Part shown: positions 89 to 16,672 of the stretch, in pieces | Layout: each line of letters begins with the position of its first letter | Position numbering within the stretch: position 1 is the first letter of the stretch | Assembly (NCBI GenBank): GCA_020027345.1 | Contig: JAHRAH010000140.1 | Location: 1-24,000 of the forward strand | DNA length: 24,000 nucleotides | Reading direction: 5' to 3' | From: Gammaproteobacteria bacterium | Lineage (GTDB): Bacteria > Pseudomonadota > Gammaproteobacteria > Tethybacterales > Persebacteraceae | Program-made: the position numbers and the translations under genes | Notes under the pieces: generated by a model | What the model was told of the DNA's origin: nothing | The model's database searches: none | What the model saw: the letters and a program-made list of their open reading frames with translations, nothing else

Positions 89-296
89 GTTACTTAACTC
101 TCTCCAGAGGTGTAACGCATCCAAAAATAGCGGGCGTCCCCGCCCGCTCAAACTAACCGTCATTCCCGCACTCCTATTAAAAGGCGGGAATCCAGCAAAT
201 CAACGCATCATCCCCACACCCCCATCAAAAAGCGGGAATCCCCTTTCCGTGTCATTCCCGCACTCTTCCTAAAAGGCGGGAATCCAGCAAATTAAA
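89..296. repeat. Mosaic intergenic repeat, copy A1 (three-hairpin composite with third module duplicated)
   Basis: Closely matches 6716-6826. Contains an imperfect palindrome at 89-116 (GTTAC..AGAGGTGTAAC) and the hairpin AGCGGGCG-TCCC-CGCCCGCT at 129-148. Two copies of GTCATTCCCGC-N14-GCGGGAATCCAGCAAAT follow (ATTCCC..GGGAAT cores at 162-191 and 254-283), plus a GCGGGAAT half-site at 232-239. Confidence 0.8.
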
Positions 297-342: not shown

Positions 343-1449
343 ATGCTAATCATCAACCACCACAAAACCGCAACCGGAAAAATAATCGCGGAAGCGACCC
401 TTTCGGCGGAAAAATCCTTAAACGCGCTTAATGAAAAAATGGCGCGCGCGCTCCTTTCCGCCGTTGACGAATGGCAAAACGACGACGCCGTCGCGGCGGC
501 GCTCATCAACGGCGCCGGCGAGCGCGCCTTTTGCGCCGGCGGCGATGTGCGCGAGATTTATGCGGCGGTAAAAGCGGGCGACGCCGATGCCGCGGGGCGG
601 TATTTCGCCGCCGAATACGAGACCGACTTTGCCTTGCATTGTTTTTCCAAACCGCTGATATGCTGGGCCGGCGGCATAGTTATGGGCGGCGGCGCGGGGA
701 TTATGCAAGGATGCAATCTGCGCGCGGCGACGGAAACGACGAAGATGGCGATGCCGGAAACGGCAATCGGCGCGCTCCCCGATGTCGGCGCGGCGTATTT
801 TCTGCGCGGCATCTCCGGCGGCGGCGGTTTTTTTCTCGGCGCAAGCGGCGCGCCGGTAAACGGCGAAGAAGCCCGCGCGCTCGGACTCGCCGACACAGTC
901 ATCGCCGCCGCCGCCCGCCCGCAGTTGTTGGATTCCCTGCTCGCCGCAAAATGGCGCGGCGACGCAAACGACGACATAAAAACCGCGCGCGAAGTTTTGC
1001 GCGAACTCGCCCGCAAAAACCCCCCGCCGCAAATGCAAACGCCGATGCTGCGCGCGCAAAAAACAATCGCAAAAATACAAACTGCGGAAGATGCGCTCGC
1101 AATACCGCCAAACTGCGACTTCACAAAACGCGCGGCGAAGCGCCTGCAATCGGCGTCGCCTTCTTCTCTTGCGCTTTGGCAGCGGCATTTTCACTCCCTG
1201 CAAAACGCGACTCTCGCCGAAGTTTTCGCCGCCGAATACAGCGCAATGTGCGCGACAGTCGCAATGGGCGATTTTTGCGAGGGAGTGCGCGCATTGCTAA
1301 TAGAAAAAGACAACGCCCCGAAGTGGATGCACAACTCCCCGGCAACAGTCCCCCAGGAATGGCTCCGCGCCGCCGCCGAATACGACAACAAAAACGCAAA
1401 AGTCCTAACCCAAACCCTAACCCTCCGCGCCCCCGCAAAACACAATTAA
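343..1449 (+). CDS. Enoyl-CoA hydratase/isomerase family protein, 3-hydroxyisobutyryl-CoA hydrolase-like
   Basis: 368-aa ORF starting at ATG 343. Crotonase-fold motifs are visible (ERAFCAGGDV, GGIVMGGGAG, PETAIG), with a long C-terminal domain as in ECH_2-type hydrolases. The TAA stop (1447-1449) lies inside the AATTAAC leader of the downstream repeat. Confidence 0.85.
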   Translation: MLIINHHKTATGKIIAEATLSAEKSLNALNEKMARALLSAVDEWQNDDAVAAALINGAGERAFCAGGDVREIYAAVKAGDADAAGRYFAAEYETDFALHCFSKPLICWAGGIVMGGGAGIMQGCNLRAATETTKMAMPETAIGALPDVGAAYFLRGISGGGGFFLGASGAPVNGEEARALGLADTVIAAAARPQLLDSLLAAKWRGDANDDIKTAREVLRELARKNPPPQMQTPMLRAQKTIAKIQTAEDALAIPPNCDFTKRAAKRLQSASPSSLALWQRHFHSLQNATLAEVFAAEYSAMCATVAMGDFCEGVRALLIEKDNAPKWMHNSPATVPQEWLRAAAEYDNKNAKVLTQTLTLRAPAKHN

Positions 1450-1536
1450 CTATACCCCCCGCCGCGAAGCGGGGGGGGGGGTCGGAGCGTTCCCCGACGA
1501 AAACGTCGTCGGGGAACGCTCCGGGGGGTTGGAGAA
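1444..1536. repeat. Mosaic repeat, copy C1 (AATTAAC leader, C6/G11 hairpin, 17-bp perfect hairpin, G6-TTGGAGAA tail)
   Basis: CCCCCCGC (1455-1462) pairs with GCGGGGGG (1469-1476). CGGAGCGTTCCCCGACG (1483-1499) pairs perfectly with CGTCGGGGAACGCTCCG (1507-1523). It sits between two convergent genes and has the same architecture as 3696-3790. Confidence 0.8.
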
Positions 1537-1578
1537 CGCCCGCAAAATAACAGTTCACCCCGTATAAATAACAGTCCC

Positions 1579-2496
1579 CTATTCCGGTTCTTCGTTTCGG
1601 GTTCTCAGGAATACGGGGAATCTTGGGATTCCGTTTTCGGTAAATCCCTGGTGTTTGTATGTCACCGTCGCGCCGACGGGCGGGGGGTTTTTGCGTTGCG
1701 CGTCCTTTAATCCGCTGCCGATGGAAAACTCTTTTCCGTCGGCGAGGGCGCGGGCGCGCAGCGAGCCGGTCATTCCCGCGTATTTTCCCTTGCCCGGATT
1801 GTGCCCGATGACGACCGCCTCGGCGTCGGCAAACGGTTTATACTTCAACAAATCGTCGCTGCGTCCGACTCGGTGCAAAGATTCAATCCGCCGCAGCATC
1901 AAACCCTCGCCGCCTTCATCAACTATCTTCGCAAACCGCATTTCCAATTCTTCGGAGGAACCGGCCGCTTTTTGTTCAACAACACTCCAATATTTGTTTT
2001 CCGAATCCGCCGCGTATTCTTTCAGTTTTGCGTAACGCTCGCGAAAAACCCCGCCGTGTTCGGGCAAGTCAAAAACCATATACCGAATCTTCCGCCATCC
2101 CTCGTGCGGTTTTTTCCGGCGCACCGTCCCCGATGCGTATTCAAACTTTCCGCGCCCCGCCCAGAGTTCGCCGTCCAGCCGCGCGCCCGGAAAGCCGGCG
2201 GTAAACCATTCCGGCGCCGCAAAAACCTTACCCCCGCGCGAGACCAGCCGGCGACCGTCCCAGAATGCGCGAACGCCGTCGTATTTTTCGCTCACCCAAT
2301 ATTCTTCCAGCACCGCGACACCGTCGGAACGATACTCGCGCGCCAAAGAAAACCCCGGCTTTTGCGCCTTAAGTAAATTAACCCCCGGCTTTGCGACATT
2401 CTCCCCGGCAAAAACAAAACCGCAAACAACCGCCGCCGCGACAACCGCAACAACCCCGCGAGTCATCCCCCGAAAAAACCCCGCGAAAAAAACCAT
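1579..2496 (-). CDS. ATP-dependent DNA ligase, minimal Lig E-type with N-terminal signal peptide
   Basis: 305-aa ORF. The adenylation motif I is present (SEKYDGVR, KxDG lysine), and a C-terminal OB-like region ends in ENGIPRFPVFLR. The N-terminus MTRGVVAVVAAAVVCGFVFAGE looks like a signal peptide. Start is ATG 2496, or ATG 2466 as an alternative. Confidence 0.85.
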   Translation of the reverse strand: MVFFAGFFRGMTRGVVAVVAAAVVCGFVFAGENVAKPGVNLLKAQKPGFSLAREYRSDGVAVLEEYWVSEKYDGVRAFWDGRRLVSRGGKVFAAPEWFTAGFPGARLDGELWAGRGKFEYASGTVRRKKPHEGWRKIRYMVFDLPEHGGVFRERYAKLKEYAADSENKYWSVVEQKAAGSSEELEMRFAKIVDEGGEGLMLRRIESLHRVGRSDDLLKYKPFADAEAVVIGHNPGKGKYAGMTGSLRARALADGKEFSIGSGLKDAQRKNPPPVGATVTYKHQGFTENGIPRFPVFLRTRNEEPE

Positions 2497-2508
2497 CCCC
2501 GCAAAAAA

Positions 2509-2952
2509 TCAATTCAACGAAGCCGGCACCGCAAGCGAAAACATCGGTATTTCCACTTCCAGTTCGCCCGCGTCGTCGCGCCGCATAATGTAGGCGCCGT
2601 TCATTGTCCCCACCGGCGTGGGCATATCCACATAACTCGCGTATTCGTAGCGCGCCCCCGGGCGCAAATACGGCTGCTCGCCCACGACGCCCTCGCCCTT
2701 CACTTCGCGCACCCGGTTGTCGCCGTCCGTTATCGTCCACCGCCGCGAAATCAGCCGCAGCGGAACCTCCCCCAGATTCTCAATCCGTATGTGATACGCA
2801 AACCAAAAATCGTCATCGTCCTCTATCGGCGGCTCCGGCAGGTGTTCCCAGCGCACCCGCACGCAAACCCGCACCCCGTCCTTTTCCGTAACCGCCGACG
2901 CAACCTTGCGCGAAAGTTTTTCCCCCTCGTCCGTCCCGCTCATCTTTTGCAT
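2509..2952 (-). CDS. apaG: ApaG (DUF525) domain protein
   Basis: ApaG-like sequence is visible (FWFAYHIRIENLG...LISRRWTITDG...V.GEGVVGEQP.L.PG..YEY.S). The start is ambiguous among 2982, 2952 and 2943. I chose 2952 to avoid a head-to-head overlap with rpe. It lies 12 nt upstream of the ligase gene on the same strand. Confidence 0.8.
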   Translation of the reverse strand: MQKMSGTDEGEKLSRKVASAVTEKDGVRVCVRVRWEHLPEPPIEDDDDFWFAYHIRIENLGEVPLRLISRRWTITDGDNRVREVKGEGVVGEQPYLRPGARYEYASYVDMPTPVGTMNGAYIMRRDDAGELEVEIPMFSLAVPASLN

Positions 2953-2958
2953 TATAAT
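2953..2958 (+). promoter_or_regulatory. Candidate -10 box (TATAAT) for rpe
   Basis: Perfect TATAAT hexamer 17 nt upstream of the rpe ATG, in the short divergent apaG/rpe region. No convincing -35 was seen. Confidence 0.3.
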
Positions 2959-2975
2959 ACCCCCACCGCGCCCGA

Positions 2976-3647
2976 ATGCCAATCACCGTCGCCGCCAGTT
3001 TGCTCGCCGCGGATTTCGCCCGACTCGGCGAAGAAGCCGCAGCCGCCCTCGCAGCCGGCGCCGACTGGCTGCACCTGGATGTGATGGACAACCACTATGT
3101 CCCCAATCTCACCTTCGGCGCACTCGCCTGCCGCGCCCTGCGCAAGCACCCGCAAACGGCGGACGCCTTTTTGGACGCCCACCTGATGACCGAACCCGTG
3201 GATTCGCTCATCACCCCCTTCGCCGAAGCCGGCGCGAACCGCCTCACCTTCCACCCCGAAGCCAGCCGTCATCCCCACCGCACCGCCGCCGCCATCAACG
3301 CCGCCGGAATGCGATGCGGCATCGCTCTCAACCCGGCGACACCCCTCGCCACTCTCGCGCATCTCCTCCCCCTCGCCGACTTGGTTTTGTTGATGACAGT
3401 CAACCCCGGCTTTGGCGGGCAGCCGTTCATCGCCGACTCCCCCCGCAAAATCCGCGAAACCCGGCAACTGTTGGATTCCACCGGCAACGAAAAAATCCTC
3501 CTCCAAACAGACGGCGGAATCAACCCAAAAACCGCAAAACTCTGCGCCACCGCCGGCGCAAATGTCCTAGTAGCCGGCAACGCCATCTTCGCCGCCCCCA
3601 ACTACCAAACCGCCATAACCTCCCTCCGCCAAGGCGAGAAAGATTAA
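2976..3647 (+). CDS. rpe: Ribulose-phosphate 3-epimerase
   Basis: 223-aa ORF with hallmark Rpe motifs (SLLAADF, LHLDVMDNHYVPNLTFG, DAHLM, MTVNPGFGGQ.F, DGGIN). It is followed by gph, as in many proteobacteria. Confidence 0.93.
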   Translation: MPITVAASLLAADFARLGEEAAAALAAGADWLHLDVMDNHYVPNLTFGALACRALRKHPQTADAFLDAHLMTEPVDSLITPFAEAGANRLTFHPEASRHPHRTAAAINAAGMRCGIALNPATPLATLAHLLPLADLVLLMTVNPGFGGQPFIADSPRKIRETRQLLDSTGNEKILLQTDGGINPKTAKLCATAGANVLVAGNAIFAAPNYQTAITSLRQGEKD

Positions 3648-3695
3648 CAGCCAAGGCAAGAAAGAGTAACGGCAACCGTGTCATCGCCCCTCCCC

Positions 3696-3790
3696 CAACC
3701 TATACCCCCCGCCGCTTGCGGGGGGGGGTCGGAGTTTGTCGTCCGCATCTACGATGCGAACGGCAAACTCCGGGGGGGTGGAGAAGGTGA
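3696..3790. repeat. Mosaic repeat, copy C2
   Basis: The TATACCCCCCGCCGC..GCGGGGGGGG hairpin pairs 3705-3712 with 3718-3725. A long hairpin is closed by CGGAGTTTG (3730-3738) and CAAACTCCG (3764-3772), with a different interior from C1 (CGCATC/GATGCG inner stem). The tail is G7-TGGAGAAGG. Confidence 0.8.
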
Positions 3791-3810
3791 AGAACACCAT
3801 CAGTCAAAAC

Positions 3811-3862
3811 AAACCAACCCCCCCCCATCTCCGATGGGGGGGGGCTGGGGGGGGGAAACCCC
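3811..3862. repeat. Poly-C/poly-G hairpin element, copy B1
   Basis: Layout is C9-ATC (3818-3829), TCC loop, GAT-G9 (3833-3844), CT, G9 (3847-3855), AAA, CCCC. This gives a 12-bp stem. Related copies lie at 6658-6710 and 6871-6922. Confidence 0.85.
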
Positions 3863-4592
3863 AAAAACCAACCCCGCCGCCCTCTTTGACTTAGACGGCA
3901 CCCTAGTCAACACCGCCCCCGACATCCACGCCGCCGCCTCTGCAATGTTAAAAGAGTTATCCCTCCCCTCTCTCCCCTTCGCCGAAGCGCGACAGTTCAT
4001 CGGCGACGGCATCACGCGATTCGTCAAACGCGCGCTCACCCGCCAGTGGTGGGGCGAGCCAACCCCCGAACTCCTAAGCCGCGCCGAAGAGTCCATGCGC
4101 CGACACTACGCCCGCGAATGCGTCGCCCGCCTTTTGTGTTACGACGGCGTCCCCGAAACCCTGCGCGCGCTCAAAGAATCCGGGCTGCCGATGGCATGCG
4201 TCACAAACAAACCCGCCCGCTTTTCGCAGCCCCTCCTCGCCGCTTGCGGATTGAACGAATACTTCGCCGCAGTCGTCAGCGGCGACACCCTCCCCGTCAA
4301 AAAGCCAAACCCCGAACCACTCCTCGCCGCCATAACCACCCTCGGCGCGGACCCCGGTCAAACATGGATGATTGGCGATTCCGCCGCCGACGCCAAAGCC
4401 GCAAGCGCAGCCGGCTGCCGTTTTGCCGTAGTCGCCTACGGTTACCACCGCGCCGGTCAACTCCCCCCGGCGGACGCCGTTTTGCAAACATTCCCCGAAA
4501 CCCTCCCCCTCCTCGCCCCGCAAACCCCCGCCGAAGAAAAGCAAAAAAAACAAAAACAAAAAACGCCGCAAGCCGCCCCGCAAACTGTATAA
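3834..4592 (+). CDS. gph: Phosphoglycolate phosphatase (HAD superfamily)
   Basis: HAD motifs are present: FDLDGTLVNT (motif I), VTNKP (motif II), GDS..D (motif IV). It sits downstream of rpe. The nearest in-frame start before motif I is ATG 3834, inside the B1 hairpin stem. The track ORF starting at 3678 (GTG) reads through repeats C2 and B1 and is not credible. The protein has a low-complexity Lys/Gln-rich C-terminal tail. Confidence 0.8.
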   Translation: MGGGWGGETPKTNPAALFDLDGTLVNTAPDIHAAASAMLKELSLPSLPFAEARQFIGDGITRFVKRALTRQWWGEPTPELLSRAEESMRRHYARECVARLLCYDGVPETLRALKESGLPMACVTNKPARFSQPLLAACGLNEYFAAVVSGDTLPVKKPNPEPLLAAITTLGADPGQTWMIGDSAADAKAASAAGCRFAVVAYGYHRAGQLPPADAVLQTFPETLPLLAPQTPAEEKQKKQKQKTPQAAPQTV

Positions 4593-4593
4593 T
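4588..4593 (+). promoter_or_regulatory. Candidate -10 box (TATAAT) overlapping the gph stop codon
   Basis: Perfect TATAAT 7 nt upstream of the ABC ATPase ATG at 4601. If functional, it would give a leaderless or nearly leaderless transcript. Confidence 0.2.
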
Positions 4594-4600
4594 TAAAAAG

Positions 4601-5341
4601 ATGCAGGCACTGCTCGTCAAGGATTTGCATAAGGCGTATCTTTCCGCCCCCGTCCTGCGCGGGATAGACCTCGCCGTGCAAGCTGGCGACTCTTTCGGCT
4701 TCGCCGGCGCGAACGGCGCCGGAAAAAGCACCCTCCTCAAATGCGTGCTCAACTTCATCCACTACGAGCGCGGCGAAATATCCTTTTTCGGCATCTCCGC
4801 AAAAAACCGCGAGGCGCGCAAGCGCATCGCCTTTTTGCCCGAGCGCTTTATCCCCCCCTACTACCTCAGCGGCGAGCAATTCCTCCGCCTGATGATGAAA
4901 CTGCAGGGCGAAACCTACGCCCGCCCCGCCGCCGAAGAAATGCTCGCCGGGCTGGATTTGGACCTCACCGCCCTCGCAAAATCCGTCCGCTCTTTCTCCA
5001 AGGGTATGACGCAAAAACTCGGGCTCGCCGCCTGCTTTCTCGCCAAGCGCGATTTCTACCTGCTGGACGAACCCATGAGCGGGCTGGACCCGAAAGCCCG
5101 CGCCCTCGTCAAGCGGCAATTTATAAAACTCAAAGAACGCGGCGCCACTTTGTTTTTTACCTCGCACGCCCTCGCCGACATTGACGAAATGTGCGCGCGC
5201 GTCGCCGTCCTCCACGACGGAAGAATATGCTACGACGGCGAACCCGCCGCGATGCGCGCCGCTTTTTCCGGCGCCGAAACGCTGGAAGAAGCGTATCTCC
5301 GCGCCATCGGCGACAAAAACGGAAACGCAAAAAATGATTGA
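4601..5341 (+). CDS. ABC transporter ATP-binding protein (ABC-2/NatA-like), no adjacent permease
   Basis: Walker A GANGAGKST, signature-like FSKGMTQK, Walker B FYLLDEP and H-loop TSHAL are present. ATG at 4601 is in the frame of track ORF 4046-5341. The upstream part of that ORF is an Arg-rich shadow over gph. Confidence 0.85.
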   Translation: MQALLVKDLHKAYLSAPVLRGIDLAVQAGDSFGFAGANGAGKSTLLKCVLNFIHYERGEISFFGISAKNREARKRIAFLPERFIPPYYLSGEQFLRLMMKLQGETYARPAAEEMLAGLDLDLTALAKSVRSFSKGMTQKLGLAACFLAKRDFYLLDEPMSGLDPKARALVKRQFIKLKERGATLFFTSHALADIDEMCARVAVLHDGRICYDGEPAAMRAAFSGAETLEEAYLRAIGDKNGNAKND

Positions 5342-6620
5342 CCCGTCGCTGCTGCGGGGCGACTTCGCGGCGGCGGCAAAAAACTTCGCACGCCGCGGAC
5401 TGCATATATCCGAACGCGAATTCGCCGCCGCCGGCGAACTCCGCAAAAACGCGCAAAACAAATGCGAAACCCTGCGCGCAAAACGCAACGAACTCTCCCG
5501 CGAAATCGGAAAAGCAAAATCCGAAGGCGAAAGCGATGCCGCAAAAAAACTCCTCGCCCAAGCCGCCGCCCTCGGAGACGATTTGCAAAATGCCGAAAAA
5601 GAATTCGCCAAGGCGCGCGGGGACGAAGCGCGCCTGCTCCACGAACTGCCGAATCTTCTGCAGGAGACCGTCCCCGAAGGCGCGACTTCCGAAGACAACA
5701 AAGAACTGCGCCGATGGGGGGGAGCGCCCGTTTTTGATTTCGCCCCCGCCGACCACGCCGAACTCGGCGCCGCTTTGGAAATGATGGATTTCGCCCGCGC
5801 CGCAAAAATGGCATCCGCAAGATTCGTCGCGCTCTCCGGCGAACTCGCGCAAATGCACCGCGCCCTCGCCCAGTGGATGATGGACTTGCATTCGCAAAAG
5901 CATGGTTACCGCGAAGCGTATCTGCCGATGCTCGTCAACCCCCGCGCCGTTTTCGGCGCCGGGCAACTGCCGAAATTCGCAAACGAACTCTTCTTCGCCG
6001 AACGCGATTCGCTCTATCTGATTCCCACCGCCGAAATACCCGCGACAAACTGGGCGCGCGAAAGAATCATCCCCGAAAGCGAACTGCCAATTAAAATTGT
6101 CGCGCACACCCCGTGCTTTCGCCGCGAAGCCGGCGCCCACGGAAAGGACACCCGCGGAATGCTCCGCCAGCACCAGTTTGACAAAGTGGAACTCGTCCAT
6201 ATAACCGCCCCCGAAAACTCCGAAAAAGCGCACGAAGAAATGACCGCACACGCCGAAACCGTTTTGCAGGAACTGCAACTGCCCTACCGCGTAGTCGTCC
6301 TCTGCGCCGGCGACACCGGATTCGCCGCCGCAAAAACTTACGATTTGGAAGTGTGGCTGCCCGGACAAAACACCTACCGCGAAATATCCTCCTGCAGCAA
6401 CTGCGGCGACTTTCAGGCAAGAAGAATGCAAACGCGCGTCAAAAACAAGGACGGAAAAATAAACCTAGTCCACACGCTCAACGGTTCCGGCGTAGCCGTC
6501 GGCCGCGCCCTCATCGCCGTCATGGAAAACCACCAAACCAAAGACGGCAACATAACCGTCCCCAACCCCCTGCGCCCCTACATGCAAAACAAAAAAACAA
6601 TCCCCTCCCCCCCCCAATGA
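5334..6620 (+). CDS. serS: Seryl-tRNA synthetase
   Basis: Starts MIDPSLLRGDF, followed by an N-terminal coiled-coil arm and class II motifs (FRRE.G..G.DTRGM.R.HQF.KVE, GSG.AVGR...A..EN.Q). ATG 5334 overlaps the ABC gene stop by 8 nt (ATGATTGA). Confidence 0.93.
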   Translation: MIDPSLLRGDFAAAAKNFARRGLHISEREFAAAGELRKNAQNKCETLRAKRNELSREIGKAKSEGESDAAKKLLAQAAALGDDLQNAEKEFAKARGDEARLLHELPNLLQETVPEGATSEDNKELRRWGGAPVFDFAPADHAELGAALEMMDFARAAKMASARFVALSGELAQMHRALAQWMMDLHSQKHGYREAYLPMLVNPRAVFGAGQLPKFANELFFAERDSLYLIPTAEIPATNWARERIIPESELPIKIVAHTPCFRREAGAHGKDTRGMLRQHQFDKVELVHITAPENSEKAHEEMTAHAETVLQELQLPYRVVVLCAGDTGFAAAKTYDLEVWLPGQNTYREISSCSNCGDFQARRMQTRVKNKDGKINLVHTLNGSGVAVGRALIAVMENHQTKDGNITVPNPLRPYMQNKKTIPSPPQ

Positions 6621-6657
6621 AAAACAACCCAACCCCCCCTCCATCTTTGATGGAAAA

Positions 6658-6710
6658 CAAATTAACCCCCCCCCCATCTCCGATGGGGGGGGTGGGGGGG
6701 GGGAAACCCC
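6658..6710. repeat. Poly-C/poly-G hairpin element, copy B2 (preceded by degenerate copy at 6628-6657)
   Basis: Layout is CAAATTAAC, C10-ATC (6666-6678), TCC, GAT-G8 (6682-6692), T, G10 (6694-6703), AAA, CCCC. A degenerate copy with the stem TCCATC-TTT-GATGGA lies at 6640-6654. Confidence 0.85.
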
Positions 6711-6715
6711 TCGCT

Positions 6716-6826
6716 CTCGTTACACCTCTCCAGAGGTGTAACGCATCCAACAATAGCGGGCGTCCACGCCCGCTCAAACCAGCGTCATTCCCGCACTCTC
6801 CCAAAAGGCGGGAATCCAGCAAATTA
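6716..6826. repeat. Mosaic intergenic repeat, copy A2 (three-hairpin composite)
   Basis: Perfect palindrome GTTACACCTCT-CC-AGAGGTGTAAC at 6719-6742. Hairpin AGCGGGCG-TCCA-CGCCCGCT at 6755-6774. GTCATTCCCGC-N13-GCGGGAATCCAGCAAATTAA with the core at 6787-6815. Confidence 0.85.
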
Positions 6827-6870
6827 ATTGGAACGGCGGAGACACCGTCCCCCAAAAACAACCCCCAAAA

Positions 6871-6922
6871 CAAATTAACCCCCCCCCCATCTCCGATGGG
6901 GGGGGCTGGGGGGGGGAAACCC
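6871..6922. repeat. Poly-C/poly-G hairpin element, copy B3
   Basis: Layout is CAAATTAAC, C10-ATC (6879-6891), TCC, GAT-G8 (6895-6905), CT, G9 (6908-6916), AAA, CCC. Confidence 0.85.
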
Positions 6923-8347
6923 AAACCCCAAAAAATCCGCACCCGCTTCGCCCCCTCCCCCACCGGAAACCTCCACATCGGCGGCGCCCGCACGGCCCTC
7001 TTCAATTGGATATGCGCCCGCCAAACCGGCGGAGAATTCATCCTCCGCTTTGAAGACACCGACACAGCCCGCAGCACAAAAGAATTCGCCGAATCCATTA
7101 AAAAAGATTTGCAGTGGCTCGGACTGCACTGGGACGGCGAACCCCAAAAACAAAGCGCGCGCGCGAACCGTCACCGCGAACTCGCCGAACAACTGTTGCA
7201 AAGCGGCGCCGCATACCGCTGCTATTGCGCCCCCGAAGAACTCGCCGCAATGCGCGAAGCCCAACTCGCCCGCGGCGAAAGCCCCCGCTACGACCGCCGC
7301 TGGCGCGATTCCAAAAAAAGCCCCCCGCCCGGAATAAAACCCGCGCTGCGTTTGAAAGCCCCGCTAAGCGGCGAAAGCGTTTTTGCCGACGCCGTCAAGG
7401 GAAAAATGACCGTCGCCAATTCCGAACTGGACGATTTTGTTTTGCTGCGCGCAAACGGCGCCCCGACTTACAATCTGGCGAATGTCGCCGACGATATGGA
7501 CGGCGAAATAACGCACATCATCCGCGGCGACGACCATCTGATGAACACGCACCGTCAATTGCAATTGTTTTCCGCCCTCGGAAAAAAGCCGCCGGTTTTC
7601 GCGCACCTGCCGATGATTCTCGCGCGCGCGCAAAACGAAAGCGGCGAAACAATAAAGGACAAAAAAGGCGAAACGGTATACGAAAGAATGTCCAAGCGCG
7701 CCGCCGCCGCCGGCATCGCCGAATGCCGCGAAAACGGATTTTTGCCGGAAGCCGTCGTCAACTACCTCGCGCGATTGTCGTGGGCGAAAGGCGACGCCGA
7801 AATCTTTGATGCCAACTTTCTGCTCGCCCACTTCTCGCTCGCGACGGTAACCCCCTCCCCCGCGCGCCACAACCCCGAAAAAATGCAATGGCTCAACCGC
7901 GAACATCTGCACAACCTCCCCCCCGAAGAAGCAAACCGCCGCGCAAAAAAACTCACAAACGGCGAACTGCAAATCAGCGACGAAGCCGCCGCATTAATCC
8001 TCCCCCGCGCCGAAACCCTGCGCGACTTCGCCCACCGCGCAAAATTCTTCCAAACCGCCCCTCCCCCGAACAAGGAATTACTTGTGCAACACCCCCTCCC
8101 CGATTCCTTCCCCGCCCTAATCGCCGCATTGGATGCAATCCCCGAAAGCGAATGGCATCCCCCCGCCATCAAAACCGCCATCCAAAAAACCGCAAAAGCG
8201 TCCGGATTAAAATTCCCCCAACTCGCAATGCCCCTCCGCGTCCTCCTAACCGCCCAAAAAGAATCCCCCGACATAACCCAAACCACCGCCCTCCTAGGCA
8301 AACCCGAAACCTTAAAACGGCTGTCGGCTTTTTCCGAAATCGGATAA
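6896..8347 (+). CDS. gltX: Glutamyl-tRNA synthetase
   Basis: KIRTRFAPSPTGNLHIGGARTALFNW carries the HIGH-type motif, and MSKR is a KMSKS-like motif. GluRS-like sequence continues throughout. The only in-frame start near the conserved N-terminus is ATG 6896, inside the B3 hairpin. The track ORF from 6353 overlaps serS and reads through the repeats. Confidence 0.85.
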   Translation: MGGAGGGKPKPQKIRTRFAPSPTGNLHIGGARTALFNWICARQTGGEFILRFEDTDTARSTKEFAESIKKDLQWLGLHWDGEPQKQSARANRHRELAEQLLQSGAAYRCYCAPEELAAMREAQLARGESPRYDRRWRDSKKSPPPGIKPALRLKAPLSGESVFADAVKGKMTVANSELDDFVLLRANGAPTYNLANVADDMDGEITHIIRGDDHLMNTHRQLQLFSALGKKPPVFAHLPMILARAQNESGETIKDKKGETVYERMSKRAAAAGIAECRENGFLPEAVVNYLARLSWAKGDAEIFDANFLLAHFSLATVTPSPARHNPEKMQWLNREHLHNLPPEEANRRAKKLTNGELQISDEAAALILPRAETLRDFAHRAKFFQTAPPPNKELLVQHPLPDSFPALIAALDAIPESEWHPPAIKTAIQKTAKASGLKFPQLAMPLRVLLTAQKESPDITQTTALLGKPETLKRLSAFSEIG

Positions 8348-8356
8348 AATCCCGGA

Positions 8357-9178
8357 ATGCAGTCGCAGCACGGAAAAAAATGGACGCGGAAAGAAACGCT
8401 GGCGGCGTTTAACCATTACTTTCGCATTCCCTTCGGCAAATTTCACCGTAGCAATCTGGAAGTTATTCGGATTGCCGGATTGATGGGGCGCAGCCCCGGC
8501 TCGGTGTCAATGAAATTGTGCAACCTCGCCAGCCACGACGCCAAAATCAAAGGCAAAGGCAAGGCGGGATTGAAACACGCGTCCAAAATGGACGCGCAAG
8601 TGTGGGAGGAGTTTTACGCCAACCCTGACATACTTGTCCGCGAAAGCGAACAAGCCGCGGCCGCGCTGGAAAACCAAACGGTTGAGGAACACGCGCTCGC
8701 GCATTGCTTAACCGGAACTGCGGACATCCCCGAAGGGCGGGAGCAGGAGCGGGTTGTCCGGGTTCGGATTCATCAATCGTGGTTCCGCCGCGCAATTCTT
8801 TCCGACTACCGCAACCGTTGTTGTGTTACGGGGCTTGCCGTGCCGGGATTGCTGAACGCCAGCCACATCGTCCCGTGGAGCGAAAACACCAAAAATCGGC
8901 TGAACCCGGAAAATGGGCTATGCCTAAATATCCTGCACCACCGCGCTTTTGACCTGGGGATGATGACAATCACGCCGGACGGCGCGATAAAAATATCCCC
9001 CTCCCTGCGCGCCGCCGCGCGCCCCAACTCCCGCGCATCCTTCATCGCCGAAGTCCACGGCAAAAAAATAGAAATGCCCCGCAACCACCCGCCCTCCCCC
9101 GAATTCCTGAAATACCACAACCGCCAAATCTTCCAAGAAAATCTCGGCCCCGGCGGAACACCGCATTTGCCATTGTAA
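8357..9178 (+). CDS. HNH endonuclease family protein (HNH_2-type, putative restriction-like nuclease)
   Basis: 273-aa ORF. The C-terminal half reads HQSWFRRAILSDYRNRCCVTG....LNASHIVPW.....RLNPENGLCLN.LHHRAFD.G, typical of the HNH_2 family. The N-terminal region KWTRKETLAAFNHYF looks like a small helical or wHTH domain. It starts 9 nt after the gltX stop. Confidence 0.85.
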   Translation: MQSQHGKKWTRKETLAAFNHYFRIPFGKFHRSNLEVIRIAGLMGRSPGSVSMKLCNLASHDAKIKGKGKAGLKHASKMDAQVWEEFYANPDILVRESEQAAAALENQTVEEHALAHCLTGTADIPEGREQERVVRVRIHQSWFRRAILSDYRNRCCVTGLAVPGLLNASHIVPWSENTKNRLNPENGLCLNILHHRAFDLGMMTITPDGAIKISPSLRAAARPNSRASFIAEVHGKKIEMPRNHPPSPEFLKYHNRQIFQENLGPGGTPHLPL

Positions 9179-9265
9179 ACCCACGCCTTTACAAGCATTT
9201 GTCTGCGGTGTTTGCAGTCAAACCCCATAGGAGGGCGGATTTTTGTTTTGAGAGACGAATTGTTG

Positions 9266-9271
9266 TATAAT
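9266..9271 (+). promoter_or_regulatory. Candidate -10 box (TATAAT) with strong Shine-Dalgarno AGGAGG at 9279-9284
   Basis: The sequence TTGTATAATGTGCATAGGAGGATATCCGATG contains a perfect -10 hexamer, and AGGAGG lies 6 nt before ATG 9291. The surrounding 110-nt spacer is visibly AT-richer than the rest of the window. Confidence 0.35.
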
Positions 9272-9290
9272 GTGCATAGGAGGATATCCG

Positions 9291-10274
9291 ATGCTGAAAC
9301 AACCCTTGGGAAAATTAATGTCTGTCAACTTGCAGGATGTGTGGGAAACGGAAGCCGGGGGCTTTACGCCCTGGCTGGCGGCGCACATTGGAATTCTCGC
9401 CGACGCCATTGGCTTGGAACTCGAGAACCCGGAAAAAGAAAAACAGGTGGGTGCGTTCAGTGCGGACATTTTGTGCAAGGATGCCAGCGACGGCTCGCTA
9501 GTGGTGGTGGAAAACCAAATGGGGAAATCCGACCACAAACACCTGGGGCAAATTCTGACTTACGCGACGGGCTTGCACGCAAAAACAGTTGTCTGGATTG
9601 CGCGTGAATTTCGCGAAGAACACCGTGCCGCGCTGGACTTGCTCAACGCCAACATGAAGGAGGAATACCGTTTTTTTGGGTTGGAAGTGGAGTTGTGGAA
9701 AATCGGCGATTCCAAACCCGCGCCAAAGTTGAGCGTCGTTGTCAGCCCCAACGATTGGAGCAAGGATGTGTTTCGCGCAAGCAAGGGTGAAATGTCCGAG
9801 TCCGAAGCGCGGTGGTTGCTTTACTGGACGGAGTTTGCTAAGTACCTGGACGAATCGGCTTTTCATCTTTCCGCTCGGAAGCCGCGTCCTAGCAATTGGA
9901 TGAATTTCGCAGTTGGGCGCAGCGGCGTAAAAATATCCGCTTGCTGGAAAAACAGTGGGCGCCGATTGGAAGTGCAACTTCGCGCAACCGACCAAAACGC
10001 CGAGGCGTTTTACGGTTTGCTTGCCGAAGAGGCGCAGGCGATTGACAGGCAAATCGGCTTTTCGCTGGATTGGGAAGCCGGGCGCCCCGCCTCCGGCAAA
10101 AAAAGGGCGTATATTTGCGCTGGCAAGGACGACGCCGACATCAAAGTCAAAAGCAAGTGGAAAAACCAGCATCAATGGCTGGCGGACACCGTGCGGAAAT
10201 TTGACAGCGTTTTTCGCGAGCGCGTCAAAGAACTAAACCCCGAAGATTGGGATGCCAATCAAGAGAACGATTGA
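9291..10274 (+). CDS. PD-(D/E)xK (NucS/DUF91-like) nuclease-fold N-domain fused to a DUF4268-like C-domain
   Basis: The N-terminal motif FSADILCKD...LVVVENQMGKSDHKHLGQILTYA is the D...ENQ...HLGQ..TY signature of NucS-like PD-(D/E)xK modules. The C-terminal about 170 aa (WLLYWTEF..YL....R....NWMNF..G..G......W) resembles DUF4268. ATG 9291 has a canonical SD. The track start at 9270 lies inside the -10 box. Confidence 0.8.
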   Translation: MLKQPLGKLMSVNLQDVWETEAGGFTPWLAAHIGILADAIGLELENPEKEKQVGAFSADILCKDASDGSLVVVENQMGKSDHKHLGQILTYATGLHAKTVVWIAREFREEHRAALDLLNANMKEEYRFFGLEVELWKIGDSKPAPKLSVVVSPNDWSKDVFRASKGEMSESEARWLLYWTEFAKYLDESAFHLSARKPRPSNWMNFAVGRSGVKISACWKNSGRRLEVQLRATDQNAEAFYGLLAEEAQAIDRQIGFSLDWEAGRPASGKKRAYICAGKDDADIKVKSKWKNQHQWLADTVRKFDSVFRERVKELNPEDWDANQEND

Positions 10275-10285
10275 CGGCGAGAGCG

Positions 10286-10313
10286 AGGCAGGACTAGCCG
10301 CCCTGTCCTGCTT
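10286..10313 (+). terminator. Weak hairpin downstream of the DUF4268-like gene
   Basis: GCAGGAC (10288-10294) pairs with GTCCTGC (10305-10311), extendable by two pairs, with a 10-nt loop. It is followed only by TTT, so it is not a strong intrinsic terminator. Confidence 0.25.
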
Positions 10314-10397
10314 TCCGCCGTTGTTGGTGGAGAGCATCGCCGTGCGGGGGGATAAAACCTTCGGGCATTGGGAACGCAGAGTATAACCGCCAAACGG

Positions 10398-10486
10398 CGG
10401 AGAGGGAGGGATTCGAACCCTCGATGGAGTTTTTGCCCCATACTCCCTTAGCAGGGGAGCGCCTTCAGCCGCTCGGCCACCTCTCC
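10398..10486 (-). tRNA. tRNA-Ser (anticodon GCU)
   Basis: The reverse complement reads GGAGAGGTGGCCGAGCGGCTGAAGGCGCTCCCCTGCTAAGGGAG..long variable arm..GAGGGTTCGAATCCCTCCCTCTCCG. It has a 7-bp acceptor stem, a D-loop with GG, the anticodon loop CT-GCT-AA, a long extra arm typical of Ser, and a T-loop TTCGAAT. CCA is not encoded. Confidence 0.9.
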
Positions 10487-11772: not shown

Positions 11773-11892
11773 CGTCATTCCTGCGAAAGCCGGAATCCAT
11801 ACGGAGCCGGCGGAAAAGGTGAATTCCCCCCCCGCGCGAAAACAACGAGAAGGCAAAGCAAGTATGGATTCCTGCTTTCGCAGGAATGACGG
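11773..11892. repeat. dRS3-like inverted pair D1 (MITE/NIME-like unit)
   Basis: CGTCATTCCTGCGAAAGCCGGAATCCATACGG (11773-11804) is matched by its inverted copy GTATGGATTCCTGCTTTCGCAGGAATGACGG (11862-11892), with a 57-nt spacer. Each arm is itself an ATTCC-N-GGAAT palindrome. It lies in the divergent lysC/phyH-like intergenic region. Confidence 0.85.
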
Positions 11893-13621: not shown

Positions 13622-13779
13622 CAAATTAACTATGCCTCCCGCCGCTTGCGGGGTAATTCGTCATTCCCGCGAAAGCGGGAATCCATACGGTCATTGTTTT
13701 TCCGCTGGATTTCGGGCGGTATAAAGTTCTGCGGTTTTCGCGGGCGAGTTATGGATTCCCGCCTTCGCGGGAATGACGG
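13622..13779. repeat. Hybrid repeat: C-type leader/hairpin fused to dRS3-like inverted pair D2
   Basis: The leader and hairpin CAAATTAACTATGCCTCCCGCCGCTTGCGGGG occupy 13622-13653. The left arm CGTCATTCCCGCGAAAGCGGGAATCCATACGG is at 13659-13690, followed by a 59-nt spacer. The inverted right arm TATGGATTCCCGCCTTCGCGGGAATGACGG is at 13750-13779. The ATTCCC-N8-GGGAAT cores are at 13663-13682 and 13755-13774. Confidence 0.85.
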
Positions 13780-16630: not shown

Positions 16631-16647
16631 TTCCACCTATCCCCGCC

Positions 16648-16672
16648 ATTCCCACTTGCGCGGGAATGACGG
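16648..16672. repeat. Single dRS3-like site D3
   Basis: ATTCCC-ACTTGCGC-GGGAAT-GACGG in right-arm orientation, located in the 48-nt gap between the convergent GS-like and yidD genes. Confidence 0.75.

Follow-up and report, generated by a model that had tools for sequence, protein, structure and literature searches.

Where can translation of gltX, encoding glutamyl-tRNA synthetase (GluRS), begin when the position of its start codon is occupied by CAA? The question is raised by the serS-gltX spacer in a 24,000-nt stretch of a Persebacteraceae genome (Gammaproteobacteria, Tethybacterales; GenBank GCA_020027345.1, contig JAHRAH010000140.1, positions 1–24,000, forward strand), analysed as a whole and referred to here as the window. 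Nearly all bases of the 311 nt between serS and the conserved gltX body lie in repeats or hairpins, and a frame without stops runs from an ATG at the serS stop codon (ATG 6617) into gltX. Our leading explanation, to which we give an even chance of being right, is that hairpin repeats invaded a compact, coupled operon and that gltX may now be translated from ATG 6617 through the repeat mosaic; the choice of ATG and the history of insertion are what we infer from the features described below.

Three families of palindromic repeats are present in the window: B, a hairpin of C and G homopolymers; A, which carries a hairpin resembling the Neisseria transformation sequence (NTS) and dRS3; and C (3.5, 2 and 2 copies in the 24 kb for B, A and C, respectively). 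In the serS-gltX spacer the units are ordered B0-B2-A2-hairpin-B3 (Table 1), and the repeat mosaic proposed here by the first-pass annotation, which was made from the letters alone, holds in coordinates and content to within a few bases. Tract lengths are C9/G9-CT-G9 in B1 (upstream of gph), C10/G8-T-G10 in B2 and C10/G8-CT-G9 in B3, the first G tract thus being G9 in B1 and G8 in B2 and B3, as originally read. A 42-nt B core gives two matches in the window at ≤3 mismatches, compared with 0.00 expected by chance (shuffles), and B core hairpins have predicted energies from −23.6 (B2) to −26.6 kcal/mol. B1 and B3 have a common tail (GGGAAACCCCAAAAA), with an additional AAACCC (6-nt duplication) in B3, whose 3′ tail (AAACCC-AAACCCC-AA) adjoins the gltX Lys codon at 6932. 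A2 is ~95% identical to A1 (~95–203), and its third hairpin (6783–6819) has NTS/dRS3-like flanks (CGTCATTCCCGC...GCGGGAATCCAG). The serS stop (TGA, 6618–6620) lies at the beginning of a 33-nt tandem array (6617–6686; 2.1 copies, 81% matches, no indels; TRF), and both the 33-nt units and the 213-nt spacing from B2 to B3 keep the reading frame.

The absence of a conventional gltX start, noted in the first reading of this sequence, was confirmed: CAA (6929), preceded by CCC, is found at the expected position, and the window reads CCC-CAA-AAA-ATC(-CGC) where relatives have ATG-AAC/AGC-AAA-GTC. The closest GluRS relatives start M-(N/S)-K-V-R-T-R-F, M-S-F-V-R-T-R-F or similar, and the window ATC (6935) aligns with their Val4, indicating that the ancestral ATG was replaced and not merely mutated. 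The same pattern is seen at gph, where relatives have ATG-(ACC/CGC)-GCC-GCC-...-TTT-GAT, i.e. ATG directly before (T/R)-A-A-L-F-D, and the window has ...AAA-ACC-AAC-CCC-GCC-GCC-CTC-TTT-GAC straight after the B1 tail. The gltX body itself is intact and conserved, with GluRS catalytic and anticodon Pfam domains; the best non-self matches (62–66% identity) are proteins of uncultured metagenome-assembled genomes (MAGs), and the best named matches are of Nitrosomonadales type (~47% identity).

Initiators in frame with gltX are ATG 6617, TTG 6647, ATG 6650, ATG 6683, GTG 6692 and ATG 6896. The nearest is indeed ATG 6896 in the B3 stem, from which the product would start MGGAGGGKPKPQKIRTRF (expected N-terminus fMet-GGAGGGKPKPQK or fMet-GGAGGGKPK), and ATG 6683 is in frame as stated; B1 translates as MGGGWGGE in the gph frame. 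The claim that the repeat supplies the only possible start codon of gltX is not supported in that form, as ATG 6617 at the serS stop is in frame, no stop lies between, and the public gene call uses it. That claim had left out the zero stops in the gltX frame, ATG 6617, ATG 6650 and GTG 6692, and the ATGA overlap with serS.

The gltX frame of the serS-gltX spacer contains no stop codons, versus four and two in the other frames. In the rpe-gph spacer the gph frame likewise contains none and the other frames one each, with GTG 3678 and ATG 3834 as in-frame starts. Mononucleotide shuffles give a stop-free gltX frame with P = 0.05 over 6621–6931 and 0.07 over the part upstream of ATG 6896, and a stop-free gph spacer with P = 0.12 and 0.17 (~0.006–0.012 jointly with gltX), making chance a moderately unlikely source of the open frames. 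At the enoyl-CoA hydratase (ECH) gene, a control locus with its own ATG, the upstream repeats contain stops in all three frames. Gene calls in the public record, which are weak evidence, begin at ATG 6617 (gltX, 576 aa) and GTG 3678 (gph, 304 aa).

Comparison with five syntenic loci from relatives (L001, L002, L003, L011 and L012), in each of which serS and gltX are adjacent, bears out the earlier suggestion that repeats displaced an ancestral start. All five have conventional gltX starts of the M-(N/S)-K-V-R-T-R-F type, at serS/gltX junctions of −4 nt (GTGA in L002 and L003, ATGA in L012), +12 nt (L001) and +41 nt (L011). Most also keep more of the rpe-gph-ABC-serS-gltX order, one including the downstream DUF4268 and lysC genes, and rpe and gph overlap by ATGA in L001 and are 15 nt apart in L002. 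No B-like hairpin (C6-N9-G6) was found in the five loci, and these compact junctions without B-like hairpins indicate that the mosaics are insertions into a compact operon. The ancestral operon was presumably translationally coupled; overlapping stop and start codons are usual elsewhere in the window (e.g. ABC/serS, 8 nt), and the ATGA across the serS stop, whose ATG is in the gltX frame, is of the same overlap type as in L012 (ATGA) and L002 and L003 (GTGA). The window junctions, AATGA followed by AAAACAACCC on the left and CCCCAA followed by AAAATCCGC on the right, are both compatible with insertion into an ancestral AATGAACAAAATCCGC (cf. L012), in which case ATG 6617 would be the original gltX start.

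Predicted start accessibility was judged against the 14 homology-supported starts of the window, which have a mean local dG of −14.3 kcal/mol and a mean probability of an unpaired start region of 0.56, mostly lack a Shine-Dalgarno (SD) motif and often have A-rich leaders. ATG 6617 has the most accessible start region of the window by predicted folding (dG −5.5 kcal/mol; P(start codon unpaired) 0.95; P(start region unpaired) 0.99), and the corresponding values for GTG 3678 are −6.4 kcal/mol, 0.32 and 0.55. For the ATGs of the two gene-proximal B copies they are −39.6 kcal/mol, 0.00 and 0.14 (ATG 6896) and −40.8 kcal/mol, 0.00 and 0.14 (ATG 3834), which argues against ATG 6896 as the sole start, as first supposed. 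Both sit in the 3′ arm of 11–12-bp G/C stems, although C10 can pair either with the inner G8 (−24.0 kcal/mol) or with the outer G9, leaving the ATG in the loop (−23.2 kcal/mol), and at such near-equal energies the B hairpin is not an absolute block to starting. Consensus scans found no SD-like motif ≤20 nt upstream of the B ATGs and no sigma-70-like promoter in 3500–7100.

According to reviews, translational coupling is strongest at minimal stop-start distance, ribosomes that re-initiate do so at the closest start, and structure is unwound by ribosomes during elongation (PMC12548453). Together with the accessibility, the open frame and the frame-keeping units, these rules favour initiation at ATG 6617 and read-through. 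Under this proposal, palindromic repeats of families A, B and C would have entered the junctions of rpe-gph-ABC-serS-gltX, and at gltX the mosaic would have landed within the first codons, leaving ATG 6617 (ATGA) upstream and the K-I-R-T-R-F body downstream. Because GluRS is essential, survivors would have been only those in which the 312-nt insert was stop-free and a multiple of three. Ribosomes ending serS would start again at ATG 6617 and, opening the hairpins, continue through the mosaic, producing a GluRS with a Pro/Gly/Lys-rich, low-complexity N-terminal extension of ~105 residues that would include LALVTPLQR and ESSKLIGTAETPSPK. Appended N-terminal domains are tolerated in the GluRS family, being carried by eukaryotic GluRS and GlnRS. 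Gph would be made likewise from GTG 3678, with the B-borne in-frame ATGs (6650, 6683 and 6896; 3834 for gph) probably serving as minor or fallback internal starts.

Table 1 Repeat units, spacers and genes at and around the serS-gltX junction (window coordinates).
Feature	Position	Strand	Description
serS	5334..6620	+	Translation and open reading frame (ORF) list; exact product in public collection
ATGA	6617..6620	+	gltX-frame ATG overlapping serS TGA; first base of 33-nt tandem array; proposed coupled gltX start
B0	6620..6652	+	Degenerate 5′ half of B, AAAAACAACCCAA-C7TCC-ATCTTTG-ATG; first full unit of 33-nt array; from alignment
B2	6653..6710	+	Leader GAAAACAAATTAA, C10 6666-6675, ATCTCCG, ATG 6683, G8, T, G10 6694-6703, AAACCCC
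A2	~6719..6827	+	Three hairpins (6719-6742, 6755-6774, 6783-6819), all in minimum free energy fold; ends in GCAAATTAA
Small hairpin	6830..6851	+	GGAACGGCGGAGACACCGTCCC
12-nt tandem	6850..6873	+	CCCCAAAAACAA x2
B3	6866..6931	+	Leader, C10 6879-6888, ATCTCCG, ATG 6896-6898, G8 6898-6905, CT, G9 6908-6916
gltX conserved body	6932..8347	+	Class I GluRS; begins K-I-R-T-R-F-A-P-S-P-T-G; Pfam PF00749 and PF19269; NLHIGG (HIGH-type) and MSK motifs
rpe-gph spacer	3648..3875	+	GTG 3678, C element ~3697-3790, B1 3804-3867; gph body A-A-L-F-D-L-D-G from 3876
B1	3804..3867	+	C9-ATCTCCG-ATG (3834), then G9 (including G of ATG)-CT-G9
C element, second copy	1441..1540	+	G11 tract at 1471; between convergent genes
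A1 and further NTS-like hairpins	95..295	+	Upstream of ECH gene with own ATG (343); control locus

Several features weigh against read-through from ATG 6617. The analysis is based on only 3.5 B copies, all from one 24-kb window, and the strand is T-poor, so that finding one frame free of stops is not very improbable; when it is asked only whether the single open frame is that of the gene, the joint chance for the two loci is 1/9. Three PPP motifs and seven 7–10-nt G/C tracts would be set in an essential frame, which looks costly. The window ATGA lies 2–3 codons further downstream in serS than that of relatives and may have originated from the repeat array, not from the ancestral junction. Read-through also leaves unexplained why both gene-proximal B copies carry an in-frame ATG despite G9 versus G8, and why both lie ~12–14 codons from the conserved N-terminus. 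These last two features, retained despite the tract differences and the AAACCC duplication, would be accounted for if B were a portable start cassette, with the real gltX start at ATG 6896 in the B3 stem (3834 for gph) and the upstream mosaic untranslated. This alternative is possible, at about half the weight given to read-through, with which it is not mutually exclusive. It agrees with the lack of any other canonical start within ~200 nt, with the tail (GGGAAACCCCAAAAA) of B1 and B3 ending about where relatives have ATG, with the outer C10-G9 pairing that loops out the ATG, and with the precedent of REP2, in which a repeat with a promoter and a ribosome-binding site (RBS) as well as an ATG is fused to ORFs (PMC3184786). 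On the other hand, a 12-bp G/C stem encloses the ATG (probability of being unpaired 0.00), an SD-like motif is missing, as are an A-rich leader of the kind directly upstream of other genes and a promoter in the region scanned, and two ATGs in frame have a 1/9 chance. The stop-free, frame-keeping upstream sequence and the kept ATGA overlap would also be left unexplained. The two starts could work together: ribosomes put out of frame by a shift in an upstream tract would stop at TAA 6876, 18 nt short of ATG 6896, and could begin again at that ATG. A more elaborate version, which we consider improbable, would make B a mobile, bistable start module that replaced native housekeeping starts, with C10/G8/G9 folding hiding (−24.0 kcal/mol) or exposing (−23.2 kcal/mol) the ATG, expression set by tract length and RNA conformation, and the core moving between phyla.

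Homopolymer tracts in 5′ coding regions are a classical switch in Neisseria, Haemophilus and Campylobacter, and, whichever candidate start is taken, G8–G10 and C9–C10 tracts separate it from the gene body. A change by one base beyond ATG 6896 would throw gltX out of frame, and a slip anywhere in the B3 tracts would leave the gene inactive. Phase variation of gltX and gph by slippage in these tracts, tolerated through a second GluRS or offset by transcriptional slippage, is nevertheless very unlikely, given that gltX is a housekeeping gene, normally essential, in which slippage would be a mutational load and not a plausible switch; its body is intact and conserved, purifying selection on an essential gene would account equally well for tract lengths that keep the frame, and no second gltX was found within the 24-kb window. 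Initiation at a non-canonical codon such as ATC 6935, following CCCCAAAAA, with the repeats acting as intercistronic REP-like hairpins that stabilise mRNA or terminate antisense transcripts, would be similarly hard to credit. This ATC is in frame and accessible (P(unpaired) 0.98), the sequence upstream is 55% A, CCCCAAAAA resembles the A-rich leaders of other genes, and the three B copies are terminator-like on the minus strand (hairpin plus TTAATTTGTTTT). AUC is, however, a very weak bacterial initiator, the codon aligns with Val4 of relatives (M-N-K-V-R) and not with their Met, and there is no near-cognate codon at the equivalent gph site. It is unlikely that the mosaic or its tract lengths are wrong through faulty assembly or sequencing and the true genome has a normal start, or that the gene is decaying. 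The spacer comes from a single MAG contig of one assembly, 9 nt of the B loop (TCGGAGATG) match a Nextera adaptor sequence, and an identical 36-nt core is found in an unrelated Chloroflexota MAG. Against this, the same architecture occurs independently at gph, and the B copies have common flanks outside the homopolymers along with unequal tract lengths, as expected of genuine copies. The 17 intact ORFs contain 58 homopolymers of ≥6 nt (20 of ≥7 nt) without frameshift, and an independent Logan assembly (run SRR27685851) is identical where it overlaps (window 8255–10395, 2,141 nt, downstream of the spacer). The 9-nt adaptor match has a chance of ~5% by our own estimate, and an adaptor or poly-G artefact was rejected, the evidence for it being this one match and the element recurring with conserved flanks and being rare in public data.

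This rarity was seen in a scan for the B core (CCCCCCATCTCCGATGGGGGG), which found 3 loci in 185,579 genomes and 4 in 241 million metagenome records, none from this organism, and 0 matches in viral contigs, as would not be expected of a common artefact. Six of the seven matches are plain terminator-like hairpins, probably chance matches because the pattern is palindromic. In the Chloroflexota MAG contig JBDRTP010000284.1 (L006; 7217–7265), C8-TCTCT-C8-ATCTCCGAT-G8-CT-G9 includes 36 nt (C8-ATCTCCGAT-G8-CT-G9) identical to the B3 core, with a further C8 arm on the outside. The stretch is in frame, in opposite orientation, in an acsB-like (acetyl-CoA synthase, ACS) ORF (AAPPQPPPSEMGGERGGGDG), within a ~35-residue insertion relative to a solved ACS structure (PDB 6yua); horizontal spread of a mini-element, convergence and artefact are all possible sources of the identity. 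Five products of the window were looked up, each a singleton among 15 billion proteins, and the only Rfam match at the gathering threshold was a tRNA-Ser (~10396–10486), matches in the spacer reaching ≤24 bits versus thresholds of 40–110.

Among known systems, Rickettsia palindromic elements (RPEs) are likewise short multi-copy palindromes in coding frames without stops, tolerated in housekeeping genes (PMC10969869, PMC3184786), and the window repeats share with them a multi-copy palindrome, stop-free insertion in the gltX and gph frames, and empty sites in relatives. They differ in that B, A and C have no evident sequence relation to RPEs (by obvious dissimilarity only), are built from C/G homopolymers, and are stacked at operon junctions at the extreme 5′ end, displacing the start codon, with translation that is predicted here. 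Neisseria REP2 and Borrelia IR-A/IR-B also adjoin genes upstream, with an ATG fused to the ORF and internal stem-loops (PMC3184786), and an in-frame ATG is similarly found in the repeat here (6896 to gltX, 3834 to gph). REP2, at 120–150 bp, has a promoter and RBS, whereas in the ~65-nt B neither was found (consensus scans only) and the ATG is in the stem. The mosaic of short units, with NTS flanks (CGTCATTCCCGC...GCGGGAATCCAG) on the third A hairpin, recalls neisserial intergenic mosaic elements (NIMEs), in which RS units of 50–150 bp are flanked by dRS3 (PMC1797815, PMC11893778). Canonical NTS copies with one mismatch, on both strands, are found at 13659 and 13751, and strict dRS3 (ATTCCC-N8-GGGAAT) at 11868, 13663, 13755 and 16648, with none in the spacer, where the loop of A2 6783–6819 is longer. 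In contrast to the window repeats, NIMEs are intergenic and not in frame; as far as checked, descriptions of RS elements include no B- or C-type units, and the window organism is not a close relative of Neisseria (best named GluRS match ~47%).

Mycobacterial interspersed repetitive units (MIRUs) also lie between genes of polycistrons, with ORF ends overlapping neighbours (PMC3184786), and in the mosaic the ORF similarly begins on the stop of serS. The ORF of a MIRU finishes at the start of the next gene or overlaps it, whereas the mosaic ORF has no stop and is fused to gltX. Contingency loci similarly have tracts (here G8–G10, C9–C10) between start and gene body, the window differing in that the genes are housekeeping and the tracts are parts of hairpin repeats, not isolated. 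REP/BIMEs are RAYT-associated imperfect palindromes of 20–40 nt with a conserved GTAG/CGTC head; B has no such head, the third A hairpin starts with CGTC, and no transposase is present within the window. The ends of B (AAAACAAATTAA and AAACCCCAAAAA) are not mutual inverted repeats, unlike those of MITEs, and no clear target-site duplication is visible. B fits none of the compared families fully, having no internal dRS3, terminal inverted repeats, target-site duplication, promoter, RBS or Rfam family.

Elsewhere in the window, the family C copies (1441–1540 and 3693–3790) consist of ACCCCCCGCCGC-loop-GCG9-11 followed by TCGGAG, a long hairpin, CTCCGGGGGGG and TGGAGAA. NTS/dRS3 hairpins (CGTCATTCCCGCGAAAGCGGGAATCCAT; 1–3 mismatches to the published NTS) at 11773–11800, 11864–11891, 13659–13686 and 13751–13778, and also at 16643–16672, include two inverted pairs around the PhyH and HD-domain genes, and ATTCCCGC..GCGGGAAT copies are present in L002, L003 and L011 as well. 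A scan for intrinsic terminators gave 12 sites in the region scanned versus 9.8 expected, and these include the three B copies read on the minus strand (hairpin plus TTAATTTGTTTT), for which such a role is predicted. Over 2000–9000 (rpe-gph-ABC-serS-gltX) GC skew reaches −0.30 and AT skew +0.35, the coding strand being rich in C and A, which makes stop codons rare on that strand; the asymmetry is gone past ~9000, plus-strand genes included.

At the 3′ end of serS, the last codons (I-P-S-P-P-Q-stop) cross a C9 tract (6607–6615), and SerRS ends 11 residues past RPYM, compared with 8–9 past RPYM/RPYL in relatives. The tail (MQNKKTIPSPPQ) was considered as a further B unit and rejected, as the TRF array begins only at 6617 and the codons of the tail line up one by one with those in the tails of relatives; an ancestral origin, with drift toward A and C, is more likely. 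A +1 slip in this C9 tract would lead into the stop-free gltX frame, giving a 1004-residue SerRS-mosaic-GluRS fusion, and a −1 slip would lengthen SerRS to 468 residues. In L002 and L003 (1340–1455) the gph ORF is ~40 codons longer than in L001 (263 vs 219 aa), the extra 3′ part passing through dRS3-type hairpins, a C-terminal repeat fusion in the same operon. The slot just 3′ of gltX differs between loci, with an HNH_2 endonuclease gene in the window (8357–9178), Abi_alpha and type ISP restriction enzyme genes in L001, a type ISP enzyme gene in L011, a convergent type I restriction-modification cluster on the opposite strand in L002 and nothing extra in L012, and looks like a small hotspot for defence genes. 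L001, on an 877-kb contig, has a G23 run (614–636) between an intimin/invasin-like gene and a small ORF.

Displacement of the gltX start by repeats is unusual, with known precedents; both in-frame repeats (RPE) and start-carrying repeats (REP2) have already been described, and no long-standing question is opened. If this displacement is confirmed, selfish hairpin repeats would clearly have rebuilt, within an operon, the 5′ end of a gene for an essential aminoacyl-tRNA synthetase, and GluRS would have no choice but to bear an N-terminal tail encoded by repeats or to start from a codon that a repeat supplies. This would bear on the tolerance of essential genes to junk insertions, on the limits that translational coupling sets to where repeats persist, and on the starts assigned by gene callers in repeat-rich MAGs.

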